DNA of 64,000 nt from contig CDROCS010001137.1 in the NCBI GenBank assembly GCA_977020255.1, forward strand, positions 248,001-312,000, given 5' to 3'. Position 1 is the first letter of the stretch, and every line of letters begins with the position of its first letter. Source of the stretch: Obrimoposthia wandeli (taxonomy: Eukaryota). The notes beneath the pieces were generated by a model that was not told the origin of the DNA, made no database searches, and saw nothing but the letters and a program-made list of their open reading frames with translations. A program made the translations under genes and the position numbers. Of this stretch, positions 10,823-54,041 are shown piece by piece.

Positions 10823-10868
<46 letters not shown>

Positions 10869-11460
10869 ATCAGCGCAAGCTAATGACTTGCACTTACTAG
10901 GGATTCCTCGTTCATGTGGAAAAATTGCAATCCACAATTCCTGATACGACAGTGTTTCAGCAGGTTACCCGGCCATTTCTAGCAAGGATAATCAATGGAT
11001 AATCCCATCTTCGGGAAATCAATGTCATTTAAGTGGTAAGATAAGAGAAACTAGTGATATTTAAGTGATTCTAAAAGAGAAATGTATGAAATCTTCGGGG
11101 AATCTATGGTATTTAAGTGCTTCTATAAGATAAATTATGATATCTTCAGCAAATCAACAATATTTAAATGATTATAGAAGAGAAATGATTGATATCTTCA
11201 GCAGATATATGATATTTAAGTGGTAAGAGAAGAGAGACTAATGATATGTTCAGGAAATTCATGATATTCTGATGGTTCTATAAGATAGTAATGATATCTC
11301 CGGGAAATCTATGATATTTAATTGGTTCTAAAAAAGAAATGTAGGATATCATCGGGAAATCAATGATATTTAAGTGCTTCTAGAGGAGGAATTAATGATA
11401 TGTTCATCCAATTTGATATATTTAGAAGGTTCTTGGGGAATCATATTGGAATTTTAACTC
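9330..11460. repeat. Degenerate ~55-60-bp tandem satellite
   Basis: Recurrent unit like TTCTAGAAGAGAAATTAATGATATGTTCAGGAAATTTATGATATTTAGATG, interrupted at ~9980-10560 and by the 18S piece. Confidence 0.8.
10821..10988 (-). rRNA. 18S rRNA fragment (near the 3' end), orphan
   Basis: Reverse complement contains GATTACGTCCCTGCCCTTTGTACACACCGCCCGTCGCTACTACCGATTGAA, universally conserved in eukaryotic SSU rRNA. Confidence 0.97.
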
Positions 11461-11569
11461 ATTATCCAAAGATTGCTACAGATGAAGGGTAGATTTCATA
11501 TATATAAGCCCGCATTAAGGGGAACTAAGGATTTTGATTATTATAAGGCATTTAAGATGATTAGAGGGT

Positions 11570-12095
11570 AATTTTGTGGATGTTAGGAAAGTCTTGTGGA
11601 ACTTAGGGTGATCTTGTTGTTGATCGAAAATTTCTGTGCTAGTTGAATGGTTTAAGAAGAGGAAAATAACATGGAAGTTAGGGTAATCTCGTTGTAGTTA
11701 GGGTAATATTGTAGTAGTTAGGGAATTCTCGTGGAAGTTGAGAGGTTTAAGAAGGAAAATAACGTGGAAGTTAGGATAATCCCATGGTAATTAGGGAAAT
11801 CTCGCGGAAGTTTAGAAGAAAAAATATAATAAGTATTAAACTTTAAGGAGAGAATAGCATAGAATCAATGAAATCAGAGCAATATCAAGCCTACCTCTTT
11901 CATCAAAGCAGACATAATGATGGATATTTTTAAATAACAGACATTATTTAGCTTTACTTATACATCAATTTTTATTGATTGAAATATTCTATGTTGCAGT
12001 TGTTTAAAATATTATACGTTGTAGTTGTTTAACTTTAAACATTTTGTTGTAAAAACTAAGATATTAATACTTTTGAGTTAGGGTTAGGGTTAGGG
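11570..12095 (+). repeat. Telomere-like repeats: dispersed GTTAGGG-containing units plus (TTAGGG)3
   Basis: (TTAGGG)3 at 12078-12095; gttagggtaatc / gttagggaattc / attagggaaatc units at ~11570-11800. Confidence 0.6.
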
Positions 12096-14607
12096 TGTAA
12101 AAAGAAAATATTTGAAGTTTTATAAGAATGAATCTAATAATCAATAAATCGCAATATATCTATGCATATCTTCTAACATGTCTTTCATGAATCTTCTTTC
12201 AAAACATTTATCCTTAACTTTCAGAGAAATCACCAAATACCATAAATTCATATATTACCATACATTTTGATTATTGAAAAACTGAAATTATCAATATTAT
12301 CAATATCTAATCTCACTATCATCAACCATCATAAAGTGGCTGATAATAGGAATAATGATTTTTCTAATATGTCATTGAGATTTAGAGTATAAAATGGGTA
12401 ACATAGTTAAATATGGAGAAGACTTAGATGTTTTGAAAGTTAAATTGAAAGTTAACAGATCCTATATACTTTAATAAAGAATCTTATACCCAAATTATCA
12501 ATAATACACATATTTCATCTATATTATAACACATGTTGTAAATCCTAATAAAACCTTAACAATAAAGTATGTAATTCATCATAAGTATTTTATTTATTCA
12601 TTTATTCTATTGATTATTGAATCTAGGAGTTGGGTTTAATATTTCTAAATATAGCTTAGTTACTCACCATTTTATTAAGATATTAAGATATTACTAACAT
12701 TTCATGAATCATTTAATTCAATAAAAATCAATATTCCCATCAATATACCCTTAACTTTCGGACCTCTTATTAACTATTAATAAATATAAAGGAGAAAATA
12801 CATACCTTTATTTGCTAATTCCATTTTTTTTTTGCTAAACATGAGTCCCTAATCCACTGACTCCGATCTTGTATATTCCATTGTAATCCAGTTGAGTAGA
12901 CATTGATCCATTTATATTTCGGAAAATGACATCATAATATTGAATTTTGGTTCTTGTAGGTGATAAATTGATTTTTGAGTATTTGATCGATTTTTTAATA
13001 ATATCAGTAATTTTCCCATCAATATATGAAATTGAAAGGCTTCTGAGAAAATGCATATCTATGAAAAGTACGGGGACGTTGCCATAAATCAGCTTGCATG
13101 TTTATTTAAACAAATCTTCGTTTATATAAAACTGAGACTCAGATTAACCAATAAGAATAGATGATACAATGTTACTAAAAATAGATTATTTTTATAGGGT
13201 TAAGAAGAGTGAAATTTCGTGGTGCTTAAGATGTTTAAGGAGAAGAGAATTGGGCTCAAAGTAAAGGGAAATTATCTGATGGTTAAGATGTTTAAGAAGA
13301 GAAAAATAGAGAAATTAACGATATTTACAGGAAATTACGATATTAAGGTGGTTAGAGCATAAATTCGTGAGATAATACATCAATATTAGGGTTAGGGTTG
13401 CATTGATGAAATAAAGATTATGCTGGATTATGAAGAAAACAACTTGGAGCTGAAGGATTGCATTGATGAGAAGAAGATTGTGATAATGAAGATGATGAGG
13501 GATATGGGTAATGAAGATTATGATATTGTAAAGATATGATGAAGATCGTATGATGGTGTATGATAACAATGTAAGATAATGAAGGTATATTTAATAAAAA
13601 TTATTCTTTACAACCTCTCTTTATCTCTTAATACTTGTTTTTATTTACTCATAGGTTTAAAAATGTACTTTTGCAAGTTATGTGTAATAAATACCTTAAG
13701 ATTACAAAAACGTTTTCTACTCACAAATAAAAATAGATTCAATTACACAAAATAAGTTTTAAAAAATAAAAAAGTCAGTTTAACAATTTATAAAACTTTT
13801 TTCTACTCTCAAATAAAAGTAGTTAAAATTTCTTTAAATAGGTTTTACAAAAAATTTCTCAAAAAATATGTTTTTGCGCGCAAAAGTTTTGAATTTTGAA
13901 TTTGCGCGTTTCAAAATTGATGTATTAAAACAAAAGTACTTTTTTTAAATATTAGGTCATGATAATGAAGATGATGAGGAATTTGGAGTAATGAAGATTA
14001 TGATATTGTAAAGAGATGACGAAGATCGTATGATGGTGTATGATAACAATGTAAGATAATGAAGGTATATTTAATAAAAATTATTCTTTACAATCTCTCT
14101 TTATCTCTCAATACTTGTTTTAATTAACTCATAGGTTTAAATTTTAAAATTTCTTTAAATAAGTTTTACAATAAATTTCTCAGAAAATATGTTTTTGCGC
14201 GCAAAAGTTTTGAATTTTGATTTGTGCGCATCAAAATTGATGTATTAAAACAAAAGTAATTTTTTTAAAATATTAGGTCATGACCTTGACTTTAAAATCA
14301 TATGCCATTTTAAAAATTATAACCTTAATTTAGAATGACCTTCAGAAATCGACTGAAAACACTTAAATAAACCGAAATTTGAATACGCGCCAATCAAAAT
14401 TGATGCATTTAAACAAATATTAGCAGAAAAAGGACGTACTATAGTACATAATGACCTTAAAATGATCTTGACCTTAAAATATCATGTGTACTCGGGAGAA
14501 ATCTGACCCACATAATGACCTTGACATTGACCTTAAAATTTTTGTTTTGAAATTTGCTAGGGTGGGGGACCTATTGCCTTGAGTCGAAGTCATCACATCT
14601 TCTTACT

Positions 14608-35830: not shown

Positions 35831-37091
35831 TTAAAATCGTTCAACTAATTTAGATAGTTTTTCATTATTTATGTTTAAGTTTTGTATGGTTTTTCAATAG
35901 TAGGTTCTTCAATAGGCTCAACAATAATAAGGTCAATATTAGTCAAGTAAATAGACTCAAACGTAATAATAGGTCCATTTAAAATTGACTTGGAAAAGCT
36001 ATCACATAGACCCGGAAACTCATTATCATTGTCAACAATCAATGAATCAATGAAATTTAAAGTATTTGGGATTAATTCAGGTTTACAACTACCCAAATCG
36101 TTATTTATTTGTCTTTACAAACAGTCTTTTTACGAGTAAACATAGTTAAATGGGTTTTATTTCAATTATAAAAATCAGAATAAGTCAAAGATATGTAACT
36201 TATCTTAAAACGGACAAATGAAACGTGACTTATATCCATAATATTTCTCTGATATAGTTTGGCAAGAAGAATTTTATACACCACCATTTGTAGAATAAGA
36301 ATAGCTGCTACATAAACCATTACAACCTCTACCGCGGACATCAAAAGTCCGAGGAAAGACATGAATTACGGAACCATCTTCTAAAACATCGTCTATAATG
36401 CATTTAGATCAAAGACAATACCATTTTGGTTAAAGTAAAGGTTAGTTGACTTGAAAATGGTATGAATTTTCATAACCAAGTCCCTAATTTTGCGTTTAAA
36501 GCTTGTAATAAATTCCTCGCTATGACCTAATGGCGTCGTGTAAAACGGATTTTAAGTCATTGACCCGTTTTTATTTATGACGGAAAATTTTCCGTGTTTA
36601 CCATTTAATTTCAATTGTCTCAAGTCGATTGAATCAACATTTCGTTTGAATTATCTAAAATATTGCTTGAAGGGTCTATCATTTATATCACGGTTTTTAA
36701 TAGATCTGGCAGCTATCACAATTTTCTTAGAGTAGGTGGATGTGTCCGATCTAATCCACACCCCTCCCCCCACTGTCCTTTAAAACCGAGCATGTGTGTG
36801 GAGTGAAATTTCGTGCATGTGTGTGGATTGAAATTTTCTACCCACCCCAAAACTCATAAAAACTAATTTACCCCATATAACACCCTTTAAAATTGAAAAT
36901 CTCATAGGGCTCCCAAAAAAGTGAGGAAGGTCCTGAGAGGCCGTCTGGTGGCGAGCAATACATATGCAGAGTCGCGAAAAAATTTTCCTTGTAAGAATTT
37001 ATATTCATACATATATGTACAGGGTCGCAAATTTTTTTAAAAATCATCAACTACATAAATTGGAAATGATTTCAACATTTTCATTTTATTC

Positions 37092-37265
37092 GGATGAGTT
37101 ATCGTTGAGTCATAGGATGAGCCATCGATGACTCATAGAATGAATCATCAATACCTTAAATGATCTTTGACCTCATGATAACCTTAAATTACCTTGACCT
37201 AATGATGACCATAAATGACCTTGACCTAATGAGGTCATGACCTTAACTTGACCTTTAATGACCTC
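37092..37265 (+). promoter_or_regulatory. Subterminal motif cluster: 5 phased TGASTCA-like sites and about 8 TGACCT half-sites
   Basis: TGAGTTA 37095, TGAGTCA 37106, TGAGCCA 37118, TGACTCA 37129, TGAATCA 37141; TGACCTTGACC and AGGTCATGACCT at ~37165-37265; function inferred only. Confidence 0.45.
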
Positions 37266-37601
37266 TGGAAAAACATGTACGATCAAGAAAATATTAGTAT
37301 TTTAAATCCAAATATATACATGTATTCAAACATCAACAAAAATTAAGAAAATTCTATAAATTATTTAAATAATACGTTCTCATTGGACGTTGAACTTAAG
37401 CAACAAAAACTTAAGAAAATAATACTATTCGCATTCAAACGTAGTTAAAAAATTGATAAAAGCCTATGGATTTTTCAAATAAATTATTTGAATAACCCGC
37501 TTTCATTGGACGACAAAAGAGGGCTAGTCTGTTGTTTTTTGTATAAGGAGATCTCTTTTCATTATTTTTCATTTATCAAAATCAAGAATCAATAATCAAG
37601 A

Positions 37602-39462
37602 ATGCCTATTTTCAACAACGTTGACCTAGACGAAGAGATGGAGGTTCAACTATATGGGGATCTCTCTCCAGTACAAAAGCGAACGCCACCACAGCGAACG
37701 CCATACATTGACTTACTTAGTCAAGACTCGTCGGTGGTGAGCGAAGGAGACGAAGGAGAAGCAGCAGCAAGAGCGGAGCTGTTAAAAGAAGAAGCACCAT
37801 TGGCCAGCTCAACTCCAAGAGAAGAACCAATGAGCGTGAGATGTGGGGTACAGAGATCCCAATATATCGACCTGACTAGTCAGAATTCGATTGAGAATTG
37901 AGAAGACTGTACTCCCAGGCAGAACACAAAACCCACTCGTCCAGCAACTTCAGCAGTAGCAGCAAGGAGATCCAATATCTTCGAGAATTTTGAGGCGGCA
38001 ATCAAACGACCCTGGAAATTGATTCCACTGTCTGGGCCGGAGATAGTACTCGCACCAGACTCAGATGAGTAGCTATTCACCGATGACATTCCGTCGGATG
38101 GTGAAGAGGACTTGACTCCATTCATCGATGAATGAATACAGCCAAGTATCGGAGCCCCAGGAGTCAACGATTCAATGGTGGCAGAATTAGACGAGGACGA
38201 GTGGCGCCTATTCACCGATGATTGGGATGGTCTCACTCCCTCTGCAACACCAACTCCGATAGCCGACAATACGGTGCCTAATCCGTTCAGAAGGCCACAA
38301 TCTCCGATACGTCCTGTTAGGAGAATAAAGGCGACAAATGAGGTTAGTCTATTAATTTATTTAAAATGTTTTTTAATTTCATTTTTAGAAACTTCAATTG
38401 GATTTGGCACCGTCAGTGACCACAGCGGAGAGGCTGATTGAACTGCAGTACTTGGCGAGTCAATGTAGCCAGGATAATCCCAGGAGTGAGCACCGATACC
38501 TACCGACTCCGGATAAATTTGAGGTAAATTATTATAAATTAGTTAATAATTTTAATTATTCACATAGGAAGCCGAATTGGTAGAGAAAATTTTGGAGGAG
38601 GCAACTCTCAGACTACCCATCGATAGGAAACAAGCAGTGGTTAAGAAACCTCGACGCCATCGAATCAAAACCCACACGGTCCATCGGAAGAAGGCCAAGT
38701 TGGCGAAACAGGCTAACCTGCTCGTCATTGAGGTAAATTATTTATATATTTAAATTTCATTGATGTTTTTTGTTGCAGGAACCAATACAATTAACTGAGG
38801 AGAGATGGTGCAAAATTTCTTCTTTTTCGCAGGAACCCGTCCGGATAACTGAGGAGACTTGGGGAGAAATTACTTATTTTCCCAAGAAACGGGCGAAGCG
38901 AGCAGAGTTGAAGAAGACGAGGAGCTCGAGAAAATATAGCACCTCAATTGGCCATTATTCTGAGGCGGTGATTGGACAGCAGGAGATTCTCCCATCTCCA
39001 GTGGACGACGGTCTAATTCTATACGAGAGGATCCCAGTCTCACCGATCGAGATTAGTCTGCCATCAAGTCAACGACGCCTGCAGGAGACATCACCGGCTT
39101 CTCCTCGTCCAACAACCAGCCAGAACATAAAGAGGGCCTGGAATGAAGCTGGATTGGACGAATTCCTGGCGGAACTGGATACACCGGCAATGCTTCCAGA
39201 TTCGCGAAGGCAACAGGATGCCGTCTCACGCCAGCTTCAGCGTGAGAAGGAGGAGAAACAGAAGAAAGCTCCGCGGAAGAGAAAGGCTACTGCTTCTATG
39301 TCAGGGCCATCAACATTGGCTGCACCTCCCCCCAAAACGTTGCAACAACTATTGCCAAAACCTGTGGGAAGGACAATTGCTGCAAAACAACCGGTGAAGC
39401 CGAAAAATACCGGGCCGGCCAAAGAAGAAGGATCCAGTACCGCTTTCTCCAATAATACTTAG
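37602..39462 (+). pseudogene. Spliced Polinton accessory gene, ~574-aa disordered acidic/Pro-rich then basic protein
   Basis: Exons 37602-38342, 38389-38523, 38568-38732 and 38779-39462 joined by GT-AG introns of 46, 44 and 46 nt (all phase 0, GAG|GT); three in-frame stops at apparent Trp codons in exon 1. Confidence 0.75.
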
Positions 39463-39982
39463 TCGGAGGGATTTCGATGAGGATGATCCCAATGAAGACT
39501 TTGTAAAGATTTTTAAGAATATAATTTATAAAAATTAATTTCAAGTGTTTTCTTTTTAATATTTATTTAAATACCATCTTTAAGTTTATTAAAATATCAA
39601 GATGAAAAAAATAGTTAATTTATTCGACTGTTTTTGGATTAATAAGGAATCATTTAAATTTTTTTAGATTTAAATATAAATGCAATGATTAGTTCTAGAT
39701 TTATTAAACTTTCATTTGATACATAAAAATATATCATTTAATTGCCTGTGATTGGATTAAAAATATCTTAAATTTATATATATAGGTTCAAATGTAATTT
39801 AATTTCTAAATATTTAGGCATGTTTACATTTAATATAATTTATTTTAATATTCATAGGAGAATTGACAATATATACCAATCTTAACATGAAAGACTGAGT
39901 ACTTTGTTATTTTAATAAATTTTTGATTAATGATTTTTTTATTAGTTATAAACAAAGGGATTTGCTACAAATTTGGGTAATT

Positions 39983-40467
39983 ATGCAGGAATATATCATA
40001 GATTTTGAGGCTTACGTTAACAAAAATGATGATTATATTATAAAAGAATTATGTATTATGGATGTATGTGACGTTTTTTCATCCTTTGCATTTCATATTT
40101 CAAATATATATCCCGTTTAAAAGGTTAGATTATAAGAAAAAATTTACTAATTTATATCTAACTAAATATTTCCATTTATTAAAATGGAAAGAAGGACATA
40201 AGGCTTTTTGTGAAATATGTATTTTCAATACAATAAAATCTAATTTTGATATAGAAAATGGATTTTTTATGTTTTAGATGAAATGGATGGCAAAAGTATA
40301 AGACTTTAAAAAAATATTTTCCCAAATTGAGGTTGAATACTTTAAATATTTCATGTAATCATCTATTAAAAATTCCACGAAATATTTTCTGTCCATATCA
40401 TAGTCATGGTGACCATTGCGCATATAAAAAATGTTTAAGTCTATCTTATTATTTGACATGTAGATAA
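39983..40467 (+). pseudogene. DEDD-like nuclease-fold protein of Polinton (frameshifted)
   Basis: IIDFEAY...IIKELC; LHFIF...FHLLKW.EG; C-terminal CPYHSHGDHCAYK. Confidence 0.55.
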
Positions 40468-40704
40468 ACAATTCTTCTAATTGGAGAAATACATTATTTA
40501 AAAATTCGATTTTTCATAGAATTACAAATAAGCCTTTTAATTGGAGGAATAAAAATAATATTATCAACCAATAACAGATAAACAATCCTTCTCAGTGGAG
40601 GAATAAATTCAATTTTTTAATCCAATTGGAAAAGAGCATGTGTGCATAAATTTTAGTATATAAGCAAACACTTTCTTCATTTAAATCCCCGACAATTTGA
40701 AATA

Positions 40705-43700
40705 ATGCCTATGGTAAGAATCTATATTTATTATTTCCTTATTAATATTTATTATTTCAGATTACTTGTATCCTGTTTCCAGCCTATTGTGGTGCTTCGG
40801 CGTTATCACCTATAACCTATTGTGGTGTTTCACGGCCAACAACAAGAAGAGGGATATCGTCCAATTGGTGCGCGATTCGCAGGCCGCTCGAGCTCCACCT
40901 CCATTTACAGTGGCGGTCAGTCTACCAGTTTATGGTCCTGCCATTGGTCCTTCTCTCCCGGCTCCTGATTCTGCTACTGCCCCATCCACTCAAATGTCTA
41001 ACAATGAGTGGATGAACGACATCTCCGAGGAAGATTTTGAGGAGTTGGCACGAGCAACCCAATTCTCAAACAATGACTGGATGCGAAATATCACCCAGTC
41101 AGATTTCGAGATAGAGCAGCCTCAGTGGAGCGATAACTCATGGTTGGAGACCATCGAGGAATCCGATTTCGTCGAGTCAACGGTCGACAGCTGGATGGAT
41201 TCCATCAATGAAGAAGACTTCATTCCAGTTCAACTTGGATTGCCTTCATTAGGTATTTTTTATTATTATTTTTAAATTATATATTTTATTTTTTATTATA
41301 TATATTTTATTTTTATTTTTTATTCAGGAAATACCGTTATACAATCGTCCTCTGCTACAACAGATATGCCTCCATCATCGCGAGTGCCTACATCGATGTT
41401 AGCACGCCTAAGAGGTAATAATTTTTAAAAATATATTTATTTTTTAATATATTTATTTCAGCAGCACTAACCTCTACAACATCCGCTTCTTCATCGGCAA
41501 GGTCAGCTTCAAATGCAGCCTCTACAACTACCACTGTCTCACCAACATCGGCAGCACCTGCTACAGTAGCCCCTTCAACACCAGCTACGATTGCCTCAAC
41601 ATCGGCAGCATCACCAATAGCAGCACCTTCAACCTCAGCTGCGATTGTCTCAACTATTAATATAAATAGTTGTCTTCCCGTTCAATTAGGGGGAGATTTG
41701 TCAGCGACAAACGGAAGAAAGAGGCGAGGCCAATTTCTTAATAAGGTCCCACCCAAAAAACGTAGAGAAAACGGTGCTACTATAGAGTATCACCTAAATA
41801 ATAAATATGTTATAGTTAAGGTGCCATTAGGAAATGAAATTTTATTAAACGTAGGTGTAGATTCAAATATTGAAAATCTTTTAAAATCAGAAGTGACTAA
41901 ATTAGGACAGGCTAAGGTTCAATTTTGCGCAACAGTGCAGTTTAAAAATGTCAATGAGGAAACTAAAACTTGGGTAATTTCACATAAAGCAACTGTTTTC
42001 TATGATAATTTTGTAACTGAAATTGGAAGAAACCTGGATGAAAAAATTGCTAATTATAGCGAGTTAAGTAGTGGATGGACTCTAGTTAGAATTCACGATG
42101 TTAGCTTTGTTCTAACAAAGTTCACTGACATGATATATCTTTCGGGGAGTTCATACATTCCTTCACCTAGATCTCTTCAACTTTCACGTTCCATTGTTAA
42201 CGTACAAAACAGTGATAACCTTTGCTTTCTGTATAGCGTGTTGGCCATCCTCAAAAGGGGTGTAATTACTGAGCATAGAGAGCGTGTCAGTAAATATACC
42301 CATTTTTTAAATGAATTGCAGTATCATGGAATACATTTTCCTGTTAAATTAACTGCGATATCAAGATTTGAACATCTTAATAACTTGAGTATTAATGTAT
42401 TCAAATATAATACTGATATCCCAGTTAATGTAACAGATGAAGAAATATTTAAAAATCCTTTTGTAGATGTAATTGATAGGAGCAAAAATGAGGGGACTCA
42501 GGTCAACTTAATTTTGCTCGAACAGAATAATAAATTCCATTATGCTGCAATTCCCAGTTTAGATCGTCTTCTAAATTTAGATAATGGAGCCTTACCGGTT
42601 AGGATAAGGTGTAAGTGGTGTCATAGATGTTTGCATGGATTCCGATCCGAGCTCTCTTACAGCAAACATCTGACATTATGTTCACTGAATCCTGATGACA
42701 ATACGCTATATAGCATGCCTAAGGATAAGGATTTAAAATTCAGGGATTGGGCAAAATGCATACCCGTGGAATTCAGGGTGTATGCAGATTTTGAGTCAAT
42801 TTTAGCATTGCACGACCAGTATGAGAGTATTCACCTACCGGCTTCGGCAGGACTACTATTCTTAGGCCCCAATATTACCCAGTATCATAAATTTTCCGGT
42901 CCAAATTGTATTTTAGATTTTATTTTAAAATTAGAGGAATTAGGAACAACAATTGTCAAACCGTGGTATGATCTCAATGCTCATCAAGCAATGATCATGA
43001 CAGGCATAGACTGGGTTAATTTTAATTCTTGTAGATTATGTTATTTGTGTGGAACCCAGTCTAAGTTAGTCAGAGATCACGATCATGTTACGGGGCGATA
43101 CTTGGGAGCGGCGTGCAACCTCTGTAACCTTGGCCGTCGTTTCCCTAAAAAACCACGAATTCTCATCGTGTTTCATAACCTCAAAGGATATGATTTGCAT
43201 CATATACTTAAATACGCGTTGGGTACATTAAGCTCTTGGGAAATTTCATGTATACCTCAAACTTCAGAGAAATATTTATCTTTAACTGCATATACTGAAT
43301 TCTGCAGTTTAAGATTCATAGATTCTCTGCAGTTTTTGAGTGGTTCTTTAAAAAAGTTAACGGCATCTTTAAATGCATGGCCAATTACACAGTCAGTGTT
43401 CCAAGCTTCGGTTAACGATAAGGAGATTTTTCCGTATAAATTTCGAAAACATTTGCAGATTTAGAAAATACAACTGAAATCCCACCAATAACTGAATTTG
43501 AGGGTGTAAGTCTTCAAGACTATAATGAAGCCCGTACATTTTGGGCGAATAATTGTCGAAATCTTTTAGAATATATGCTTTATCATATGAAGTTAGACAT
43601 TTATCTTTTAGCTGATCTTTTTGAGTCCTTTCGTGTAAAATCTTTAGCAGAAGATGTGCTAGATCTCATGCATTTCTTTAGTTTACCTGGTCTTTTATGG

Positions 43701-45040
43701 GCAACAGCAATAAAAACTCTTAAAATTAATATCGAGTTACTGAAAGATCCCGCGATGTATCAAATGTATGATTATGGTATACGCGGTGGAATGAATTTTT
43801 TCAATAAACATCATGTTGTCAAAAATCAATCCACGGAGATTCTGTACATCGATATTAATAATTTGTATGGGTGGGCGCTTACTCAACCTCTACCTCATGC
43901 CAACTTTAAGTGGGTTTATGATGTTGATCAGTTGATACAGTTTCATCCGACGTCGGCTATTTGGTTGAGGTGGACATAAAAATCCCTCCCAATGTGCATG
44001 ATAAATTAGATGATCTTCCAGTAGCGCCTGTTCATCAATGCCCACCTAATTCAAAGGTTAAGAAATTATTGTTAACCCATGAAGACAAGTTGAATTATGT
44101 TGTGCATAGGCGGCTTCTTCAATTCTACTTAAAGTTGGGAGAGAAAGTTACTCGAATTCATCGTGCTACAAGCTTCAGTCAAAACTTTGTGTTTAAAGAC
44201 TATATTGAGAAGAATTCAAGAAAACGTAATTGGGCCACTAGCAAATTCGATCGAGATTTTTACAAGTTAAAAAGTAATAGTCTCTTTGGAAAAACTGTAG
44301 AGGACTTGCGGAAACGTATTTGCCTACGGTTTTGCAATGATGAGCGTAAACTAATAACATATACTAGCAAGTACAACTTCAAGCGTAGTTTTACAATTGC
44401 AGAAGACTTGGTAGCAGTGTTATTAGGAAAACAGAGTATTTGTCTCGATCGACTGAGTTATATAGGTCAAACGGTTTAAGACATTTCTAAACTCAGAATG
44501 TATGAGCTTCAATACATAGAATTGGAGAAATACCGACAAGAATTCAATTGTGAGATCAAAATCGCGGCAGGGGACACTGACTCTTTCTTTTTAGAATGTA
44601 AAAATGTTAGTTTAAATAATCAATTATTACCAGCAATGTTTAGGGACAACTTACTAGATACCCATAAATATCCTGCTAACCATCCTCTACACTCTATGAG
44701 TTTAAAGGACATTATCGGGAAATTTAAGGATGAAAGCGAGGGACAGGTTTTGTATGATGATTGTATTTTCCTACGCCCTAAATGCTACAGTTTACATGCA
44801 TCTAATAATACATGTTCAATGAGAGCAAAGGGTGTGGGAAGAAACAATCTTACACATGAGGCCTACTGGAAGGTTTATGATACTGGGTGTATTGAAAGCG
44901 TTGAGCAAACTAGATTTATTTCAAGAGCCCATCAACTGTATTCCCATAAATCAACCAAAATCAACTTGAGTATTAATGACGACAAGCACTTTTGGGTAGA
45001 AAAGAACGCTAGCCTGGCTTATGGACACTTCCGAATTTGA
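40705..45040 (+). pseudogene. pPolB: Protein-primed DNA polymerase B with spliced N-terminal extension (frameshifted)
   Basis: ExoI YADFES, endonuclease VII-like RDHDHVTG..CNLCN, ExoII FHNLKGYD, PolA YIDINNLYG, PolB KLKSNSLFGK, PolC AGDTDS; introns 40714-40760, 41253-41327 and 41415-41461, the last two splicing in frame into ORF 41698; frameshifts or stops at ~43464, ~43960 and 44479. Confidence 0.93.
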
Positions 45041-45303
45041 ACGGTTTTCATTTTTTGATTATTTTAGTTTAGTTTTTTTAAATTTTAGATCCCTATGGCA
45101 CCTTGACTCTAACTTTTTGTTATTTCAATACATTTTTTAAGATGGACCTTGTTTTTGTTGACAGATCTCATTGTGATGTTGTTTTTAATAAATGTATTAA
45201 ATAAAATTTGTCTTATGTCTTTTATTATTTTACCTTATATTTTTTAGGGATTTAAAAAAGTAATTCAAAATAAAACATTAAAAATATTTATTTTTATAAC
45301 ACA

Positions 45304-45678
45304 CTAATCTTTTTGCAACGATAACCATAAAATACATAAATGTCCACAGTTTCTCGTCGCAGGATCCTGATATTGTATCTTGTTGTAAAATACTCTTCTT
45401 CGTCCTTTTTGAATGGTTGAAACAAGTTTGTGTGGATAATACATTGCAAGTGGATCAAATACATGTATTGTCCACTCTCTAACATAAATAGCTATTCAAT
45501 GTTCTCCTGGTAAATTCGAAGTATGAGTATTGATAATGTAACCTCCAGATGGAAAAAATGGGATCATATAAATTGGATAAACTCCATTGAATTTATCACC
45601 CAGGACCTTCTCTGCTGATTCTTGTACTGAACTAAATAAAAATTAACAAATATAAATTTAAAAAATGTCTTACTTCAT
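45304..45678 (-). pseudogene. Adenain-like cysteine protease with a 5-nt first exon
   Basis: ATG AA | 42-nt intron 45673-45632 | ...INTHTSNLPGEH*IAIY...FDPL...YNKIQYQD...NCGHLC; catalytic His/Asp/Gln/Cys pattern; the stop is a Trp codon in the copy at 33640. Confidence 0.9.
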
Positions 45679-45679
45679 T

Positions 45680-46910
45680 CTATAATATGACAGTTCTGTT
45701 TTTATTGATTTGTATTTACGAATCAAACACTACGTAAATAAGTACCGTAGTAGGATGTGTTAAAGCTGCATTGAACTTAATTTCTATTCGTAAATTTTCA
45801 TCCTTTGGTAGTTGGCATTGGTTTATATCAAAGTCTGGTGCCAAAACAAATGTGAAGAATGGGCAGCTGCTTTTAAAGTCAGTGAAAGAAATACCATTGT
45901 TTATATTTTTATCTAGTTGGCCCAAATTCCGAATAATAGATTGCGTATAAGCCAAAGCATAAGCGTTACCTTCGAAATCTGTTTTATATGTTTCACGATA
46001 ATCAGTATTTCTTGAAAGTGTCACTGAACATACATTAAGATTGTCAAATTGAGTTGCATCTGTCGTATAATTTCCTAGAAACTTTGTAATTTATTTGAAA
46101 ATAAATTAAAATGAATTTCGGTAATCTTACATCACCAAAAATTTGATCCTTATTAAAAGCTTGTGTACCTGTACCTAAAGAATAGGATATAAGTTTAGTT
46201 TCTCTAATAGGATAACAAGCATTGTTTTTTTCCATTCCTATATTATGTGCCATTAAAACTGATTGCTCGGTTTTAACTCTTCGGACATATAATTTTGCAT
46301 CCAAAATATCAAGTCTAGATTTTAGAACGTCTGTGCTTATCAAAGAAAAATTCCATTTATTACGTTTCAAACGAAGATGTACATTAACACCGGGAATTAA
46401 ATATTTCGGTTGTTCAAAGAAATTCAATCTCAAAGACCCACACATTTCGTAAGCTTTAGAACCCGCAATCCATTTTTTGCGAGTTGCAACCGTTTTATCA
46501 TAACCAATGGTTGCCAAATTAGTATTTTGAGTATCAGTACTATAATTCAAAAGACTTTCAATCAAAGCTTTATGAGCATAGGAAGAATTTCCATCTTCAA
46601 TTTTGACATTATTAAGAGTAACAATGGCATCACTAAATAAAGAATTAAAGAGATAATTTACAGGTGTTACATCTGCATTTTCATCTAAATTAGTACCATC
46701 CCGATTTAATACTTTTATTTGAACATAAAGCAAAGTATCATTCAAATCTAAATACTCGCTATTGGAACCATTAATATAAAATTCTAAATCGGTTAAAGTG
46801 GTTCCTGAAACTGAGTTAACTAGAAATATTTCTTCAAAGGAAGCATTATCTACAACTACTTGTGGAAGCGGTTTATCAAAAAGACACATTTCAGTTTTGG
46901 CGCAACTCAT
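45680..46910 (-). pseudogene. Polinton major capsid protein (double jelly roll)
   Basis: LEFYI...YLDLNDTLLYVQIKV; PVNYLFNSLFSD; FFEQPKYLIPGV.V.LRLKR; LYVRRV; LRIEIKFN; frameshift near 46050 and a stop at 45716. Confidence 0.88.
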
Positions 46911-47284
46911 TTTGCAAATATTGTTCCTTCAACTTTCTTACGTTTGTTTATATTGATTTTTTGCTTCTTTTTACTTTTAAATCCACTACCGCCTTGGCTT
47001 TTATTTGATTTACGTTTTCTAATCAAATTAGCAACTTCAGGTAAAACATTATCAAGTTCATCAAGCCCATGCTTCTTAAAAGTTGGTATTAGTTTATTGT
47101 CCTTAGATGAAAGGTAATCCTTTCCTAATTTTGATATAAATCGCCCGAGTCTCTTTAAAAGAGGAAAGGCAAATCTGCTTAATGTTCTAAGCCAGCCAGA
47201 TCCATATTGTTTACCAACAAAATATGGTAATTCTCCACCTTGTTGGCTTTGACTATAAGCTTCAATTATTGGTGGATTCGCCAT
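46907..47284 (-). CDS. Small basic Polinton virion core or membrane-active protein candidate with QxGG motifs
   Basis: Intact 125-aa ORF; SQQGG|EL, KQYGSG|WLRTLSRFAFPLLKRLG amphipathic helix, K-rich tail with SQGG. Confidence 0.65.
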   Translation of the reverse strand: MANPPIIEAYSQSQQGGELPYFVGKQYGSGWLRTLSRFAFPLLKRLGRFISKLGKDYLSSKDNKLIPTFKKHGLDELDNVLPEVANLIRKRKSNKSQGGSGFKSKKKQKININKRKKVEGTIFAK

Positions 47285-48317
47285 TTTGTTTTCTTAAATG
47301 TATTGTTAAACTTGTCTTGGCCCCGTATGTGAAATCTATTAGTTGTCCGGAATCATCTCTAATATTTACTTCAATATTGTTTATAGAAAAGAGAGCAACT
47401 GGAAGATACATTGGTTGATCTATACGCATACCGACAACGTCCCCATCTTTAGTTTCATTTTGAGAAATCCATATTGTTCTCAAAAGTGGAACTCGTTGTC
47501 CTACAAGTGTTGATTCTATTAAATTAGTATAAATATATAAATTATTAACAACATTTAAAGGTTTTGCCTTATTTTTAGCTTTTATGGTTTTTATTGTATG
47601 GGTTTCAAAGGTATTTCTATTTTAACCAAGGTTTTTAGTGAGTTTATCATCAATGGAAACCCGTTTTATGCTGCTATTTACCGTAAACGTTAATTTATCA
47701 TTTAATGTTACACATTTATCCAAATATTCACTACATTCCTTCTGTATTAATTTACATAAATCCACTTCCCTTTCTATTTTATAATATTTTGAAAGCTTTT
47801 TCAGTTCCACTACAGTCTTTGGTCTCGTTTCAAGTAACAACACTTTTGCTACTCTACCAGGAACATTTCTAACCGATTTAGGTGAGACTATATCCCATTT
47901 ATTACGAGCTACTGTTTGTTCACTATAAAAACTGAATAGAAGAGCTTCTTTTTTAGATTCAAAGTTAATTTTAATAACTTGAAGATATTTTAATCGATTT
48001 TTAAATCTGACTTTGTTATTTTCAAATATTACTTTCACTTCTTTATCTATACAATTGTAATAGAATTGTCCTTTACTATCAAACCCGATCACAACTTCAG
48101 TTGTTTTTTCATGATCAACTTCTTTTGTAAACGTAATATGTGAGTTTTTTCTAATAGTAATTGGAGAATAATAAAAAGAAAATTATGTTAAAGCCGCTTC
48201 CCATTCTCCTTGGAGATTTATAGGATTTTTCCAATCGATAATAAAGCTACTTGCGTAATTATCTGGTTGAGTCTTCGGACATCCGTTACTAGGTAAAACC
48301 ATATACATAGATTTCAT
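47262..48317 (-). pseudogene. Polinton minor capsid (penton-like) protein
   Basis: N-terminal MVLPSNGCPKTQPDNYASSF...LQGEWEAAL; C-terminal LYIYTNLIE..LVG..VPLLR...YLPV...INNIEVNIRD..G.LIDF...LTIHLR; in-frame stops. Confidence 0.85.
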
Positions 48318-49397
48318 ATTATATTAGATGCTGATATCCAAGTTGGATATGAATAACCATGCCATTTAACATAGTATTGTTTATGTTTACCGGCACCCTT
48401 AGATTTTAATATTTTTTGAATACAGAAAACGCTAGGTTTATTTGATATTACTTGTAGTTCTTGCTCGTAAAATTTACCGCGAACGATATTATTGTCAGCA
48501 TCTTTAATAGTACACATTATTGGATTACTTTTTTGATCAATTTTACTTATACAAAATATTTCATCGCTCCAATTCTGATCAAAGTTTTTAATAAATGGAG
48601 TAGAGCTAATATTCGAAATTCGAACATATTCGATTTTCTTATATTTAGCTTTTTAATATTTTTTTTTATTCCTGTCCATCCAAATATCCATAGAGTTTTC
48701 ATTAGTAACATCAACAGGTCTCATTCCCTTGAGACCTCTATGTTCAGAGGGATTATATGCATGTATTATTTTAGGTAAAACTTGGATACATTTATTATTT
48801 CCTTCTTTTGTGAAATACCTTTTTATTCGATCTCTTAAAGTACGATTAAATCTTTCTACTACTGCTGCTTTGTACTGTGAAAACACAGATTAGTGATTTA
48901 TATTATTTTGTTTAAATAATGATTGAACTTGCTTATTATAAAATTATTTTCCTAAATCAGTTTTCACATTTTGTGGAATGTCCTCTTTTAATATTTCTTT
49001 AATGGCTTCAAGCATAGCTATTGAAGACTTTGCTTTAACTGGAATTACACGAGCAAACCTGCTAAATACATCAATACATGTTAAAATATATCGATATCCC
49101 TTATTAATGGAAGAATATGGGATCATCTCCAACAAATCCATTTGCCATAAATTATTAGGACCGCTGGTTTTATAAGCTCTAGTTGGAAACCTTCTTCTCA
49201 TCGGCTTGTTCAGACTGTAGGCTAACTGGTTGCTCAGCCATTTATGCGTTTTCTTGTAATTTTGTTTTGTTCTTTTTGCCAATTTTGAAACTCTGGTGTA
49301 GCCAATTGGATCTTTTGGATTGAAGCATATCTTCTCTATTACAACAATTTGAATAGAAAGAAAATTTAAATTTAGGTAAAGAAGGGTTAGCACCCAT
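48314..49397 (-). pseudogene. Polinton DDE integrase with chromodomain-like C-terminus
   Basis: LWQMDL, YILTCIDVFSRF, KTDLGK*FYN, KAAVVERFNRTL, YYVKWHGY; possible ATG G micro-exon plus 58-nt intron. Confidence 0.92.
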
Positions 49398-49425
49398 ATC
49401 TTTAGCTGATTTTATAAATAATTGT

Positions 49426-50597
49426 TTATGAATGTGTCGCAGCTATAATTATACTGATAATTGAAGCAACAACTGGAATAACAGCCTCTAGGAAACCACC
49501 ATTCTGTTTAAGAATAATATTTCGTTTCCTTTTTTTACTTTTTACATTAGCAATATCTAGAAGAATTTTTCTATATTTCTTTAATTCATTTTTCCGTTTT
49601 CCAACCTTTACTCGACCCAAAACTATATTATACAAAACTTCCAATAAATCAACTACAACAAAGGATGGAAATGTTTTAAGAATAATCATTCTCTTATGAG
49701 AAGAGGCTTTGACTAAAGCAGGGTTTCTCAACGGGGGCCCTGGGGCCCCCTGGGGGGCCACACAATTTGCCAGGGGGGCCACACGAGCCAAACAACAAAA
49801 AAAAAATTAACACCCCTGTTTTCACTGGGTTAAACACTTCGATGGCTGCACACGTGTGCCACAAATAAATGTTTGACATGGAATAAAAACAGAGTATAGA
49901 CTTCTAGATACATATGGACGCGACGCGTCAACTTATTGTGTGGGCGTACCAGCCCAATGAGGGCCGACGGTAAAACATCATAATATGCCTTAGCAAAAAT
50001 ATCATCGCGCTACAAAAGTTTGTGTGGCGGATGTGGCATGTGCATAATCATCATCCTGAGTAATCTATGGACTAAAATCAGTAATCGTGTTGTGTCTCAG
50101 CGTGTGAAGAGAAGAGTGTCACACTTCATGTGTACATGCCCAAAATACGCTGCCATTGTAAAATGCTACCTACCTAACTCACAAACGTGCACTTGTGTTT
50201 GTTTTGAATGAGTCAGTGGTTGATTTCTTTCTTCTTGTTTGTCATTCACCATATCTGAATGTACACACATAGGACCTTGTTTTTCTAATTGTCTTTTTGC
50301 TCACGTTACCCTTGTAAACAATTGCTCCAGATTTCACTACACTTGTTGGCAAACGCCAAGCGCAAGGGTCACACTAACATTTTGTAAATATAGTTTTCTC
50401 ATTGATTATCTTTTTGAATGTTTCCATGACAGAATAGTATAATTGAAAACTATACGTATACGATGTAATCTTTTTGTCCATAGTAGAGGGGGGCCACAGC
50501 AATTTGCTGCAAACTAAAGGAGGCCGTGGTGAAAAAAGGTTGAGAAACCCTGGACTAAAGCTTTAAAATAGGGTATGCTTCTTTGTATTTTCTTCAT
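49426..50597 (-). pseudogene. Basic QxGG protein (adenovirus protein X/VII-like candidate), disrupted by a MITE
   Basis: MKKIQRSIPYFKALV [MITE] KASSHKRMIILKTFP...KQNGG|FLEAVIPVVASIIS; homologs at 16990-17330 and 55879-56211. Confidence 0.75.
49719..50552. mobile_element. hAT (Buster/Charlie-type) non-autonomous element, 834 bp
   Basis: TIR CAGGGTTTCTCAAC...GTTGAGAAACCCTG; perfect 8-bp TSD GACTAAAG with central TA. Confidence 0.95.
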
Positions 50598-50773
50598 TTT
50601 AATAAAAAAGGTTCAATTTAAATATTGTTTATATTCGAAGCCATTTAAGTTTTTTTTTATTTCTAACTACAGATTTGAATAATTTTTTCACTTTTATTTT
50701 CTTAATGATTTTTTTTTATTCCTTAGGCTTTGCTTTACGTTTTACTATCAACTTTGTAAAAGGCATTGTAAAT

Positions 50774-51421
50774 TTATTTTTTATAATTGTTCTCTATTTG
50801 TTTATAAACAGTTACTCCCTTAGAATTAAATATGTCTGTTAAAACACGTAAATTATCTGGGCAAGCTTGTGTAAAGTCAATAAATATATACCCATGTGCT
50901 TGTTTAGCAGCATCATGGAATGAATCAACTAGAAAGTTATTATTTTGAGGAAATGCCTGTCTGGCCACAAAATCAACAACTGTTTGATCTCTAGAATTTT
51001 TAAATAAAACTAAGTAATGTACATTAAGATTTCTTGTTCAAAGATGACCTCCTTGGTGAAAAAGATTTTGAGTGATAAATATAACTGTTACTTCACGATG
51101 TCTTGCAATCTTTGTAAATAAATGATTAAAGTTTGATTCCTTGTTAGCTTCCTGATATAAATCATCAATTATTATTACATCTTCTTTTTTCGATCTTTCA
51201 CACCAATTTGCATCAAATCCTTCAATAAATTGTATTCCCTTCAACTTGCAAACTTCTGTTTTGGTTAATCCGCTTTCCCCTCCTCCACCATGATGACAAT
51301 AAATATTTTTGAAACTAGATTTGAAAAGAGATTCATTTTGCAACAATTTTCATACGAAATGTGTCTTTTCACTTCCACCGGGATCAACTATTTGAAATAC
51401 AGCATTATTATTTAGCTCCAT
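50774..51421 (-). pseudogene. A32/FtsK-like packaging ATPase
   Basis: Walker A decayed here to DPGGSEKT (GPSGSG in the copy at ~3930); Walker B IIIDD; RHREVTVIFITQNLF; GYIFIDF. Confidence 0.9.
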
Positions 51422-51458
51422 TGAATATACTCTTTCATTTTTAATATTGTTTATATTA

Positions 51459-51740
51459 TCATAGAAGTTTCCTTATTGAAATGTACAATGTTAGAGCTAT
51501 TGTAGATGAAATACAAAAATTAATTAATGAATATTTGGCTATAATTTTATTTATTTGTGTACGATTTCTAAATTCTCGAATAACGTATGAGCTAACCAAT
51601 ATTTCAATGTTATCTCTTGTTATATCATTATTTTTTAATTCTGATAAAATTTCTTTACCCATACTTTTTCCAGAAAATATTTCGTCGGCAAGACGATCCA
51701 CTTCATTGTCTCTATTTATAGTATTATTCATTTGAAACAA
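51459..51740 (-). CDS. Small Polinton ORF with C-terminal hydrophobic segment
   Basis: Intact 93-aa ORF; its 3' half is conserved in the copy at ~4000-4140. Confidence 0.55.
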   Translation of the reverse strand: MFQMNNTINRDNEVDRLADEIFSGKSMGKEILSELKNNDITRDNIEILVSSYVIREFRNRTQINKIIAKYSLINFCISSTIALTLYISIRKLL

Positions 51741-51759
51741 TAAGTTTAAACGGGTTTGT

Positions 51760-52324
51760 TTATAGAAAAGATAACAATATGTAATAAGATATATTTTCTA
51801 AAATCAAATCAACAATGTTTGGATAATCAAAATTTTTCAACCCCAATATCATAACTTTACCACTGGAAAATATATTTACACATAGCGGTTTAAACTTCAA
51901 ATAACTGAGAGCAGGAAATATTTCTGGTTCAAACATGCATTCTTCTTTCATTTTCTCTGCAGTTTTAAAATGATTTATCTGTTTCCCAAGATTAGCCGAA
52001 ATGGTGATTGATTGTATTGCAGTGATTCGAATTCCAAATGGTAAATTGAACCCAAGCATTGGTATTTTGCATCCCATAACACGACAATTTCCTAAAAGAA
52101 TTCAATATGAAAATTAAAAAAAACTAACCTGTAGGAAAAATAACAACTGTGAAATTGTCAAACTTTTCCACATATTGTCTCTGCTTCCATTCATTGAATG
52201 GTAAATACGAAACATCATCTTCTGTTCTTCTTTTATAATTTATATTTACGAGTTTCATTAGACTAAAATTGTATTCTATAAAATCTTCTTTATATATGTC
52301 TGAACCTGCTTTTTTATTGCACAT
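51760..52324 (-). CDS. TATA-binding protein (TBP)-like protein, 2 exons
   Basis: 37-nt intron 52128-52092 (ACA G|GTTAG...TTTTAG|GA) joins VVIFPTG-NCRVMGCK (repeat 1) to IQSITISANLG...FEPEIFPAL...VNIFSSGKVMILGLK (repeat 2). Confidence 0.8.
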
Positions 52325-52452
52325 TTCTTGTAATTATCTTCCAAACCTATTATAATTGGATGATATATTTCTTCCAATCAAATTTAGTCCAATCAAATTC
52401 AATGCTTTTGTTATATTAACCAATGAGATTCATGTTTTTTGTTAGAAATTAG

Positions 52453-52487
52453 TATAAAAGAATGCTCCATTGGAGGACAAATCACAG
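52453..52487 (+). promoter_or_regulatory. TATA box (TATAAAAG) with a downstream Inr-like TCACAGT, upstream of ORF 52491
   Basis: Canonical octamer at 52453-52460, about 30 nt before the putative initiator. Confidence 0.5.
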
Positions 52488-52490
52488 TAA

Positions 52491-52973
52491 ATGCATTCAT
52501 ATCAAAGACAAGTATCAACGATGGACGATAGTCAACGGGTATTAAGCGATGAGGAAGATATAGAAATGTTTGAAGAATCGGATAAGGATATGTATGAAGA
52601 AGTGAAACAATATTTCAAATACAAAGTCAGATTCTTGAAGAAGGCTCAACTGATTGCTTTTGTAAATCCTGTGACAATTGAAAGAAGAAAGTTCAGCTAC
52701 TATCTATCAAATATTCAAAAACCAGATTTTCAATATCTTAAACAGAAAGTTGAAAAGGCAGTTCCGAATTTTACTTTCAATAAGAACGAATTTTATATCC
52801 AAGGAACCGATGAAGCATTTCTAGATGATTATGGAAGATATGTTGATATTGATGCGTTTCCGAAAAACAAGCAATGGACTGTAACAATTCGACTTTATGG
52901 TTACAAGAAAGATGAAATGGGAACAAAGTTGCCTATGTGGAAAATTGAACGTGCTCATATTTCTATGTGTTAA
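52491..52973 (+). CDS. Polinton ORF, possible OB-fold ssDNA-binding protein
   Basis: Intact 160 aa; acidic N-terminus; C-terminal W.VTIRLYGY...PMWKI.RA. Confidence 0.55.
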   Translation: MHSYQRQVSTMDDSQRVLSDEEDIEMFEESDKDMYEEVKQYFKYKVRFLKKAQLIAFVNPVTIERRKFSYYLSNIQKPDFQYLKQKVEKAVPNFTFNKNEFYIQGTDEAFLDDYGRYVDIDAFPKNKQWTVTIRLYGYKKDEMGTKLPMWKIERAHISMC

Positions 52974-53108
52974 CTTTTGCGTGTAATAAATTGTAATCGG
53001 TTTTACTATGTTTCTTTTATTTAATAATCAGTTTTATTTTTTAAATATTTGTATCTTATATGTATTTTTTTATAAACATTGTTTTTTTAATCAGTTTCCT
53101 TATTTTAG

Positions 53109-53514
53109 AATGGATAAGAGATGTGTAGCAAATTTTTATTATCCAGAAAGATTTTCAAAGGGAAAACTATGTAATATATTAAAGAGGCATCAAATTATAC
53201 GAGTTATGAATCCTGTGAAAATATCAAAAGTGGAGAATAAATATCTCATCGAAATTTTAACAACATCTGATTTTGATCAATTAAAAAATATTTTGGGATT
53301 TTACATTCCTGATTATGTATATGAATGAAATTGATTCCAACTTGAAACTGATCCCAGTCTGGATTTTAAAGATGATCTAGGATATTTGATTGCTCTAATT
53401 CTAGATGAAGAACTATGGAATATCTCAATACGTCTCAATGGATATTTTGCTGATGACAGGAAAATGCAGCCTCTTTGGACTTTGAGTGAAGCCAATATGT
53501 TGTTTTATGTTTAA
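53109..53514 (+). pseudogene. Paralog of ORF 52491 (two in-frame stops)
   Basis: YVYE*N*FQLETDPSL reads YVYEGNYFHSESDPSL in the copy at ~4200; C-terminal WNISIRLNGY...PLWTL.EA. Confidence 0.6.
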
Positions 53515-54041
53515 TAAATGTTTTGAAAAATAATTTTGACTCGTATTTTGTTTTTTCTCCTCTAAATTATTTAGTGATCTAATTTTTCTCTCATAAATCT
53601 GAACTAAATATTTAACATGTAGTAATCTTTCTTAAAAATAGTAGTAATATATTATTTGAAATCTCGTCTGCAATAAGCCGCCGGGTCTAATATGGATTCC
53701 CGTGGTCTTCTCTAACCACTTTCAAGATAAAATTCAAAGTAAAATTTTAATTTTTTTGGGAGTGGGGGGGGGTACCCCCTCCCCATTCGTTACTTTTCAA
53801 TTTTTCAACAAAAAAAATTCTCCTACACACATACACAAAATTTCACTCCACACACATGCACGGTTTTAAAGGACAGTGGTAACCCCCCCTCCTATTCGTT
53901 GCTTCTTTTCAATTTTTTCCTACACACAAACACGAAATTTCACTCCACATACATGCACGAAATTTCACTCCACACACATGCACGGTTTTAAAGAACAGTT
54001 GGGGTGGAGGGTGTGGATTAGACCAGACACATCCACCTACT

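Follow-up and report, generated by a model that had tools for sequence, protein, structure and literature searches.

Viral TATA-binding proteins (TBPs) and late promoter boxes are already known from herpesviruses and giant viruses. A recent study of KSHV ORF24 determined that the polar DNA face of this protein is needed for late genes (10.1101/2025.08.25.672222). In cellular TBP, the first lobe is bound by TFIIA, TAF1, Mot1, NC2 and Brf, and an acidic pair in the C-lobe contacts TFIIB (PMC7221094). The Arabidopsis residues Leu-163, Val-119, Val-29 and Leu-72 set the base choice at box positions 2, 4, 5 and 7, and a C at position 7 requires a Hoogsteen pair on cellular TBP (PMC13566119, PMC4402545). 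Cellular TBP still binds TATAAAC, less well (PMC13566119). The abbreviation "TBP" appears in the Fig. 5 legend of Starrett et al. 2021 for MELD viruses with an adintovirus-like PolB; beyond the legend, the available text of that paper holds no family description, structure, promoter or intron, and one supplementary file gave no matches (PMC8502044). The Starrett et al. legends were all that was found on a Polinton TBP family or on the TATAAAC box in the literature searched, in which subscription journals and Repbase reports are thinly covered.

In this report, a TBP-like gene carried by a decayed Polinton of Obrimoposthia wandeli will be described, together with its relatives, its predicted fold and the promoter boxes of the element. 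Polinton/Maverick elements are 15-25 kb long and have terminal inverted repeats starting with AG and a 6-bp target-site duplication. The window, which is the whole 64 kb stretch of DNA analysed here, contains the following element and genes.

36731..54041, no strand assigned: decayed Polinton/Maverick (adintovirus-like), 17.3 kb, with terminal inverted repeats starting AGTAG
50774..51421, minus strand: packaging ATPase, broken, recognised by Pfam (weakly) and by likeness to intact relatives
48314..49411, minus strand: integrase with chromodomain, broken, recognised by Pfam and by likeness to intact relatives
45689..46910, minus strand: major capsid protein (MCP), broken, recognised by likeness to intact relatives
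41422..45040, plus strand: protein-primed family B DNA polymerase (pPolB), broken, recognised by Pfam and by likeness to intact relatives
52491..52973, plus strand: divergent 160-aa ORF, which often adjoins the TBP gene in relatives

The 17.3 kb element has both the terminal inverted repeats and the 6-bp duplication of its class, the latter matching at 5 of 6 bases (one mismatch). It encodes a protein-primed polymerase, an integrase with a chromodomain, a packaging ATPase, capsid, PZ and core proteins and a protease, and the TBP-like gene lies near its right end. The pPolB, the retroviral-type integrase, the A32-like ATPase and the capsid genes are thus all recognised, and all are broken in the window copy; most genes of the element have stops or frameshifts when compared with intact relatives. 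The pPolB and integrase were identified by Pfam, the ATPase match in Pfam was weak, and all were also identified by likeness to intact relatives. A reading made earlier from the letters of the window alone (the sequence-only reading) had placed the gene in a Polinton, and the terminal repeats, the target-site duplication and the gene content agree with it. The Adeno-PX-like core gene is interrupted at 49719-50552 by an insert, which we take to be hAT-like, with short terminal repeats and a target-site duplication of 8 bp. At 7800-14607 there is a second element, which has long inverted repeats starting AGTAG and, internally, an array of ~52-nt repeats; it resembles a non-autonomous derivative of a Polinton. 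The relatives of the 160-aa ORF are found in either orientation with respect to the TBP gene and several seem to have a short intron near the start; the ORF gives a weak lead to NCLDV/Pox_I3-like ssDNA-binding proteins, with a recognition score below threshold.

The TBP-like gene and the canonical TATA boxes around it are arranged as follows.

52129..52258, minus strand: exon 1, with the ATG at 52258 and the first-lobe strands up to the F116 equivalent
52092..52128, minus strand: predicted 37-nt GT-AG phase-1 intron, inside a Gly codon
51760..52091, minus strand: exon 2, encoding the final strand of lobe 1 and all of the second lobe (PF00352)
52289..52296, minus strand: canonical TATA box TATATAAA, 38 nt before the TBP start at 52258, kept in 24 of 25 copies
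52453..52460, plus strand: canonical TATA box TATAAAAG, 38 nt upstream of the divergent ORF that starts at 52491

The spliced product would be 153 aa long with the start at 52258. The claim that the gene encodes a TBP homolog holds, as the second part of the protein carries FEPEIFPAL..VNIFSSGKVMILGLK and exon 2 matches the Pfam TBP family PF00352 at 4e-10 (39.9 bits, cut-off 22.9); among PDB chains, exon 2 matched only TBP at E<0.001. The start and the promoter differ from those proposed in the sequence-only reading. The ATG at 52324 is present in only 2/39 and 2/25 copies, and the TATA box of the gene itself lies downstream of it. The ATG at 52258 is the likely start because the N-terminus of the relatives, MxLVNINYK, aligns with it. 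Similarly, the box TATAAAAG that had been named as the TBP promoter faces the other way, on the plus strand towards the neighbouring ORF at 52491, and the TBP gene has its own TATATAAA.

At the sequence level, the GT..AG segment at 52128-52092 divides the frame that ends in VVIFPT/G from the frame that starts with NCRVMGCK, as had been noted. Removing these 37 nt restores the frame of the intron-free homologs, and full-length database relatives cross the junction without a gap (e.g. IFPTGNCRVMGCK in the relative P0002). A survey of 40 same-family loci, 39 of them distinct (L008 and L036 are one place) and 38 resolvable, found that the segment is 34-41 nt long, with GT..AG ends in 35 of the 38 resolved copies; among 25 copies picked by a neighbouring gene, GT is kept in all 25 and AG in 24. 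Other Polinton families of the same genome and the metagenome locus L061 have an intron of unrelated sequence at the same codon; the intron is absent in 24 of the 33 metagenome loci listed, with 8 unresolved. Since the length varies freely, the ends are fixed and the homologs are gap-free, the segment is very likely a real spliceosomal intron that would be spliced out. The 15 joints listed from four runs (contigs of unknown kind, one sample) do not include this intron, which counts neither for nor against splicing.

Seven database relatives of the gene are 49-54% identical to it, and the intron-free P0002 is 53% identical over the exon 2 query. A profile search gave 243 representatives at E<=1e-10, including a few cellular TBPs, and PF00352 is matched by 137 of 138 aligned relatives. 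The TBP gene has at least one further gene of the window's element beside it in 36 of 51 metagenome loci, two of which (L044 and L055) are near-complete Polintons with open frames; L083 and L086 resemble ordinary cellular TBPs. In a quick tree with SH-aLRT values, in which the window was represented by exon 2 alone, the Polinton TBP family is separate from the cellular TBPs and the host TBP groups with plant TBP at 97. In IMG/VR, scans that used the TBP alignment, MCP and ATPase gave two distant ATPases and no other relatives, and GTDB contigs and phage records gave none. One of the two distant ATPase loci, L121, was examined as a control and was not useful. Many rows from P0099 to P0156 are distant members with a longer first lobe that apparently keeps helical segments. 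Other TBP-bearing Polintons have, near the TBP gene, a gene for an IAP-like BIR+RING protein or for a ubiquitin-conjugating enzyme (L117:806-1804, L190:1733-2629, L055:225-719). The host genome also has single-frame TBP paralogs on G000:C60 and C1092 (L094, L095), presumably TRF2-like, which are 34-36% identical to plant TBP and have altered DNA-facing residues.

The fold was predicted for P0002, and the structural evidence is that of this relative, not of the window protein itself. A first model built from 5 sequences was poor (pLDDT 47.7) and was dropped; the model built from a 138-sequence alignment has a pLDDT of 97.0 and a pTM of 0.88. It superimposes on yeast TBP 65-240 with Z 13.3 and an rmsd of 2.8 A over 152 residues, which bears out the saddle fold expected from the sequence-only reading. 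Against the PDB there were 44 matches at E<=0.001, TBP chains only among the matches listed, and the model also matches giant-virus TBP folds. The predicted saddle is without the first-lobe helices: H1 and H2, which go with the basic regulatory patch in canonical cellular TBP, are both missing, as no helix of 4 or more residues is present before residue 86. This loss and a rebuilt DNA-binding face are, in the model and the alignment, the main features beyond those noticed earlier.

The DNA-facing residues were compared across the 138 relatives, with yeast numbers assigned through an alignment to plant TBP and an offset. The intercalating Phe at the F116, F190 and F207 positions are kept in 99-100%, there is no Phe at F99, and the Glu pair equivalent to the TFIIB-contacting residues is kept in 89% and 98%. 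The three Phe and the E-P-E are present in the window protein, as had been reported for it. The other DNA-facing residues have changed: V122 is replaced by Arg in 99%, T124 by Met in 100%, L205 by Asn in 99% and V71 by Asn in 73%, and N159 and V161 are replaced by Ser/Thr, while cellular TBP rows keep the standard DNA-facing residues. The Arabidopsis residues named above, which govern base choice in the TATA box, match positions of this set (PMC13566119). Because the same invariant Arg, Met and Asn are found in the longer-lobed distant members, remodelling of the DNA face probably preceded the loss of the helices.

The second class of promoter in the element is marked by TATAAAC, which lies 33-42 nt upstream of six starts in the window element.

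51758..51764, minus strand: TATAAAC, 33 nt upstream of the ORF at 51731; overlaps the stop codon of TBP
51449..51455, minus strand: TATAAAC, 34 nt upstream of the start of the packaging ATPase at 51421
50627..50633, minus strand: TATAAAC, 36 nt upstream of the Adeno-PX-like core gene start
46946..46952, minus strand: TATAAAC, 42 nt upstream of the start of the major capsid gene at 46910
39947..39953, plus strand: TATAAAC, 36 nt upstream of the start, at 39983, of a conserved nuclease-like gene (~155 aa), which we assume from its motif to be "DEDD"
53071..53077, plus strand: TATAAAC, ~39 nt upstream of a small ORF at 53110

It is the position that is the signal, as TATAAAC is not enriched over the whole 64 kb (28 found, 21.5 expected). 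Upstream regions were collected from the window, 19 stretches of the same genome and the loci L041-L077, and homologs were thinned to <70% identity. TATAAAC was present 15-75 nt before the start of the ATPase in 15/17, the core protein in 7/9, the major capsid protein in 10/13 and the nuclease-like gene in 9/12, and before PZ in 2/10, the minor capsid protein in 1/9, the protease in 1/2, the integrase in 0/4 and TBP in 0/28. At 25-55 nt, it precedes 40 of 51 ATPase, PX, MCP and nuclease-like starts and none of 28 TBP starts (Fisher 9e-13), a comparison in which the four gene classes were picked after inspection of the data and related elements are not independent. On the opposite strand the count was 0/51, and 1000 shuffles gave a mean of 0.5 and a maximum of 4. 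The canonical TATAWAWR has the reversed distribution, being found at 14 of 28 TBP starts and 4 of the 51 others, and both boxes peak 33-42 nt upstream of the ATG. The box before the MCP sits within the PZ coding sequence, so protein constraint may help to keep it.

On balance, we favour the reading that the gene encodes a late-promoter TBP that works with host Pol II and TFIIB, its binding being deduced from residues and boxes. Host TBP would read the ordinary TATA boxes, and the viral TBP would be made early. The viral TBP would then bind TATAAAC before the packaging and capsid genes, a box that host TBP would read poorly, and once bound it would use the retained Glu-Pro-Glu loop to recruit TFIIB and Pol II of the host; it is the conserved Glu pair that suggests the TFIIB contact. 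In TBP, the first lobe, which is rebuilt here, is turned towards the 3' half of the box, and it is in this half that the unusual C is located. The loss of the first-lobe helices would also free the viral TBP from host eviction and inhibition (control of the Mot1/TFIIA/TAF1 type), because the first-lobe surface that these regulators bind is missing. No match to a TFIIB-family gene was found in the Polintons; there were 12 matches genome-wide, and the six that were fetched read as host TFIIB/BRF exons. The host TFIIB exon scores 81-84 bits against the best PDB TFIIB chains and 42 bits against the yeast-type ones, which makes an animal the likely host; the host genome is A/T-rich and 1.35 Gb in size. 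Host BRF-like copies of the TFIIB family are located on G000:C1245, C1124, C1202 and C5487, one of which adjoins a Polinton polymerase fragment.

The alternative that survives best, which we nevertheless consider unlikely, is that TATAAAC is read by a factor of the host, be it cellular TBP acting on a weak box, a TRF2-like paralog or a forkhead protein, and that the viral TBP is a general unregulated booster of transcription of the element. ATAAACA is a forkhead core site that fits the box, and in 6 of 46 boxes C or G replaces the first T. The host has the presumed TRF2-like genes with altered DNA-facing residues, and cellular TBP tolerates C at position 7 (PMC13566119). Against a host reader, the box is strand-specific and lies at TATA distance, and the DNA-facing residues of the viral protein are invariant and non-standard. 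Two contrasts also weigh against it.

The first contrast comes from a second Polinton lineage of this genome, represented by a complete element (G000:C2184:63278-78328, L180-L182) that has 406-bp repeats and capsid, integrase, ATPase, core protein and polymerase genes. No TBP was found in it by profile search, and the box is missing as well: TATAAAC precedes 0/14 of its ORFs and 0/8 in a partial sister. This control is one lineage, and its A/T-rich leaders may suggest a wholly different transcription system. The leaders are very A/T-rich and end in A-runs before the ATG, with no TATA-type box. This element also has an open 1498-aa polymerase, the start of which recurs within the opposite terminal repeat, and an integrase ORF with a fused phospholipase A2-like domain.

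The second contrast is a clade in which the DNA-facing residues and the box change together. The loci L078-L082 form a separate TBP branch, with Gln at L114 and V122 and Thr at L205 (tabulated for L079, L080 and L082). TTAAGCT lies 38-51 nt before 1/4, 1/7, 3/12, 1/5 and 2/5 of their ORFs (L078 to L082 in order), and TATAAAC before none. The count of 3 in L080 was reached by 1 of 2000 shuffles. The clade consists of two sub-families on contigs without an ATPase, its MCP is without the box, and its TBP may be a separate capture.

A quite improbable alternative is that the protein acts as a decoy or competitor, dampening host transcription by tying up host TFIIB/Brf or by sitting on host TATA boxes. 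The Glu pair is kept while the regulatory lobe is stripped, and the host-manipulating genes (IAP, ubiquitin-conjugating enzyme) found beside TBP in other families fit such a role. It would leave the conserved rebuilt DNA face and the promoter split unexplained, and the intron and the Pol II-type boxes show the dependence of the element on host transcription. The sequence-only reading had proposed that the protein redirects or competes for Pol II pre-initiation complexes; redirecting gains specific support from the matching non-canonical box, and competing has no support of its own. Less probable still is a role in binding viral DNA outside transcription, such as bending the termini or marking replication or packaging sites. 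The possible ssDNA-binding gene that often adjoins the TBP gene and the occurrence of the TBP fold in replication initiators (weak matches, Z ~6) speak for it, and the kept E-P-E loop and the fixed distance of the box from start codons speak against it.

The copies of the gene in its own genome bear on the last alternative. TBP is carried by 18 of the 19 Polinton stretches fetched from this genome; 13 of the 19 were chosen through the ATPase or capsid, and 12 of these 13 carry it. In an unbiased set chosen by a neighbouring gene (30 copies fetched, 5 not covered, 25 scored), the TBP gene is broken in 16 copies and as intact as the window copy in 9. It is true that the gene is uninterrupted in an otherwise decayed element, as had been pointed out for the window copy. 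This open frame is without weight and unremarkable, since inserted copies decay and the private variants of the 25 copies are near neutral (omega ~0.76, p 0.13). The first 39 copies had given a singleton omega of 0.34, which was set aside, since choosing copies by protein identity biases the estimate. Constraint on shared variants is not significant in the TBP exons (p 0.08-0.25), whereas it is in the ATPase (p 0.001). Two amino-acid changes in exon 1 are private to the window copy and fall on family-conserved columns, and they may impair it. Inverted pairs of same-family Polintons, with their TBP genes ~17 kb apart, were observed at G000:C2173:104001-134000 and C6348:68001-98000. That the gene is a one-off host TBP pseudogene, or a domesticated copy with a host function at this locus, is largely refuted and hardly credible: its frame is open while the ATPase, integrase, capsid and polymerase are broken, but relatives occur in other Polintons, at least 150 matches at 96-100% identity are present in the genome with 9 of 25 unbiased copies equally intact, the private variants are near neutral, and the host TBP groups with plant TBP, its exon being 22-24% identical to P0002.

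The late-promoter reading bears on how Polintons, which encode no RNA polymerase, time their genes and on whether they have a true viral cycle. A dedicated TBP together with a box on the capsid and packaging genes points to a herpesvirus-like staged programme that would use one small protein. The Polinton TBP would also be a natural minimal TBP and one of altered specificity, among proteins that otherwise hardly change. Tentatively, a large group of Polintons might run an early-to-late switch with a single 150-residue regulator-proof TBP, host TFIIB and a private box, and the lineage-specific pairs of TBP and box (TATAAAC, TTAAGCT) might then be a natural altered-specificity code.

When compared with cellular TBPs (PF00352; eukaryotic TBP/TRF and archaeal), the Polinton protein shares the predicted two-lobed saddle, the Phe at 116, 190 and 207, the N69 position and the E-P-E of the C-lobe. 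It differs in its size of ~150 aa, in the first-lobe helices missing from the model, in the loss of F99, in the replaced V71, V122, T124, N159, V161, I194 and L205 positions, and in forming its own branch at 20-26% identity. The label of Starrett et al. 2021 indicates that a TBP-like gene was noticed in a Polinton-like genome, which may or may not be of the window's family (PMC8502044). Nucleocytoviruses also have a viral TBP without the N-lobe regulatory signature (PMC7221094; vaccinia VITF-3, PMC12917281). Most of them encode their own TFIIB and polymerase, and the first Glu is kept in ~40% (PMC7221094), whereas the Polinton TBPs keep the Glu pair in 89-98%, and a viral TFIIB was looked for here without success. 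KSHV ORF24 is similar in having a viral TBP fold, an Asn-rich polar DNA face that includes N-x-N in the first strand, and a non-canonical box on structural genes, TATTWAA there and TATAAAC here (10.1101/2025.08.25.672222). Among 21 accessory ORFs, no herpes-type partner activators or extra Pol II-binding families were found; of the features of a herpes-type late complex, the distinct TATA-like box on structural genes is thus present, and the extra Pol II-binding domains and partners are not. According to the same source (10.1101/2025.08.25.672222), ORF24 is long, has extra domains, is without the acidic TFIIB residues, binds Pol II itself and depends on five partner factors. Unlike ORF24, the Polinton TBP is, as predicted, a bare saddle that has kept the acidic pair.
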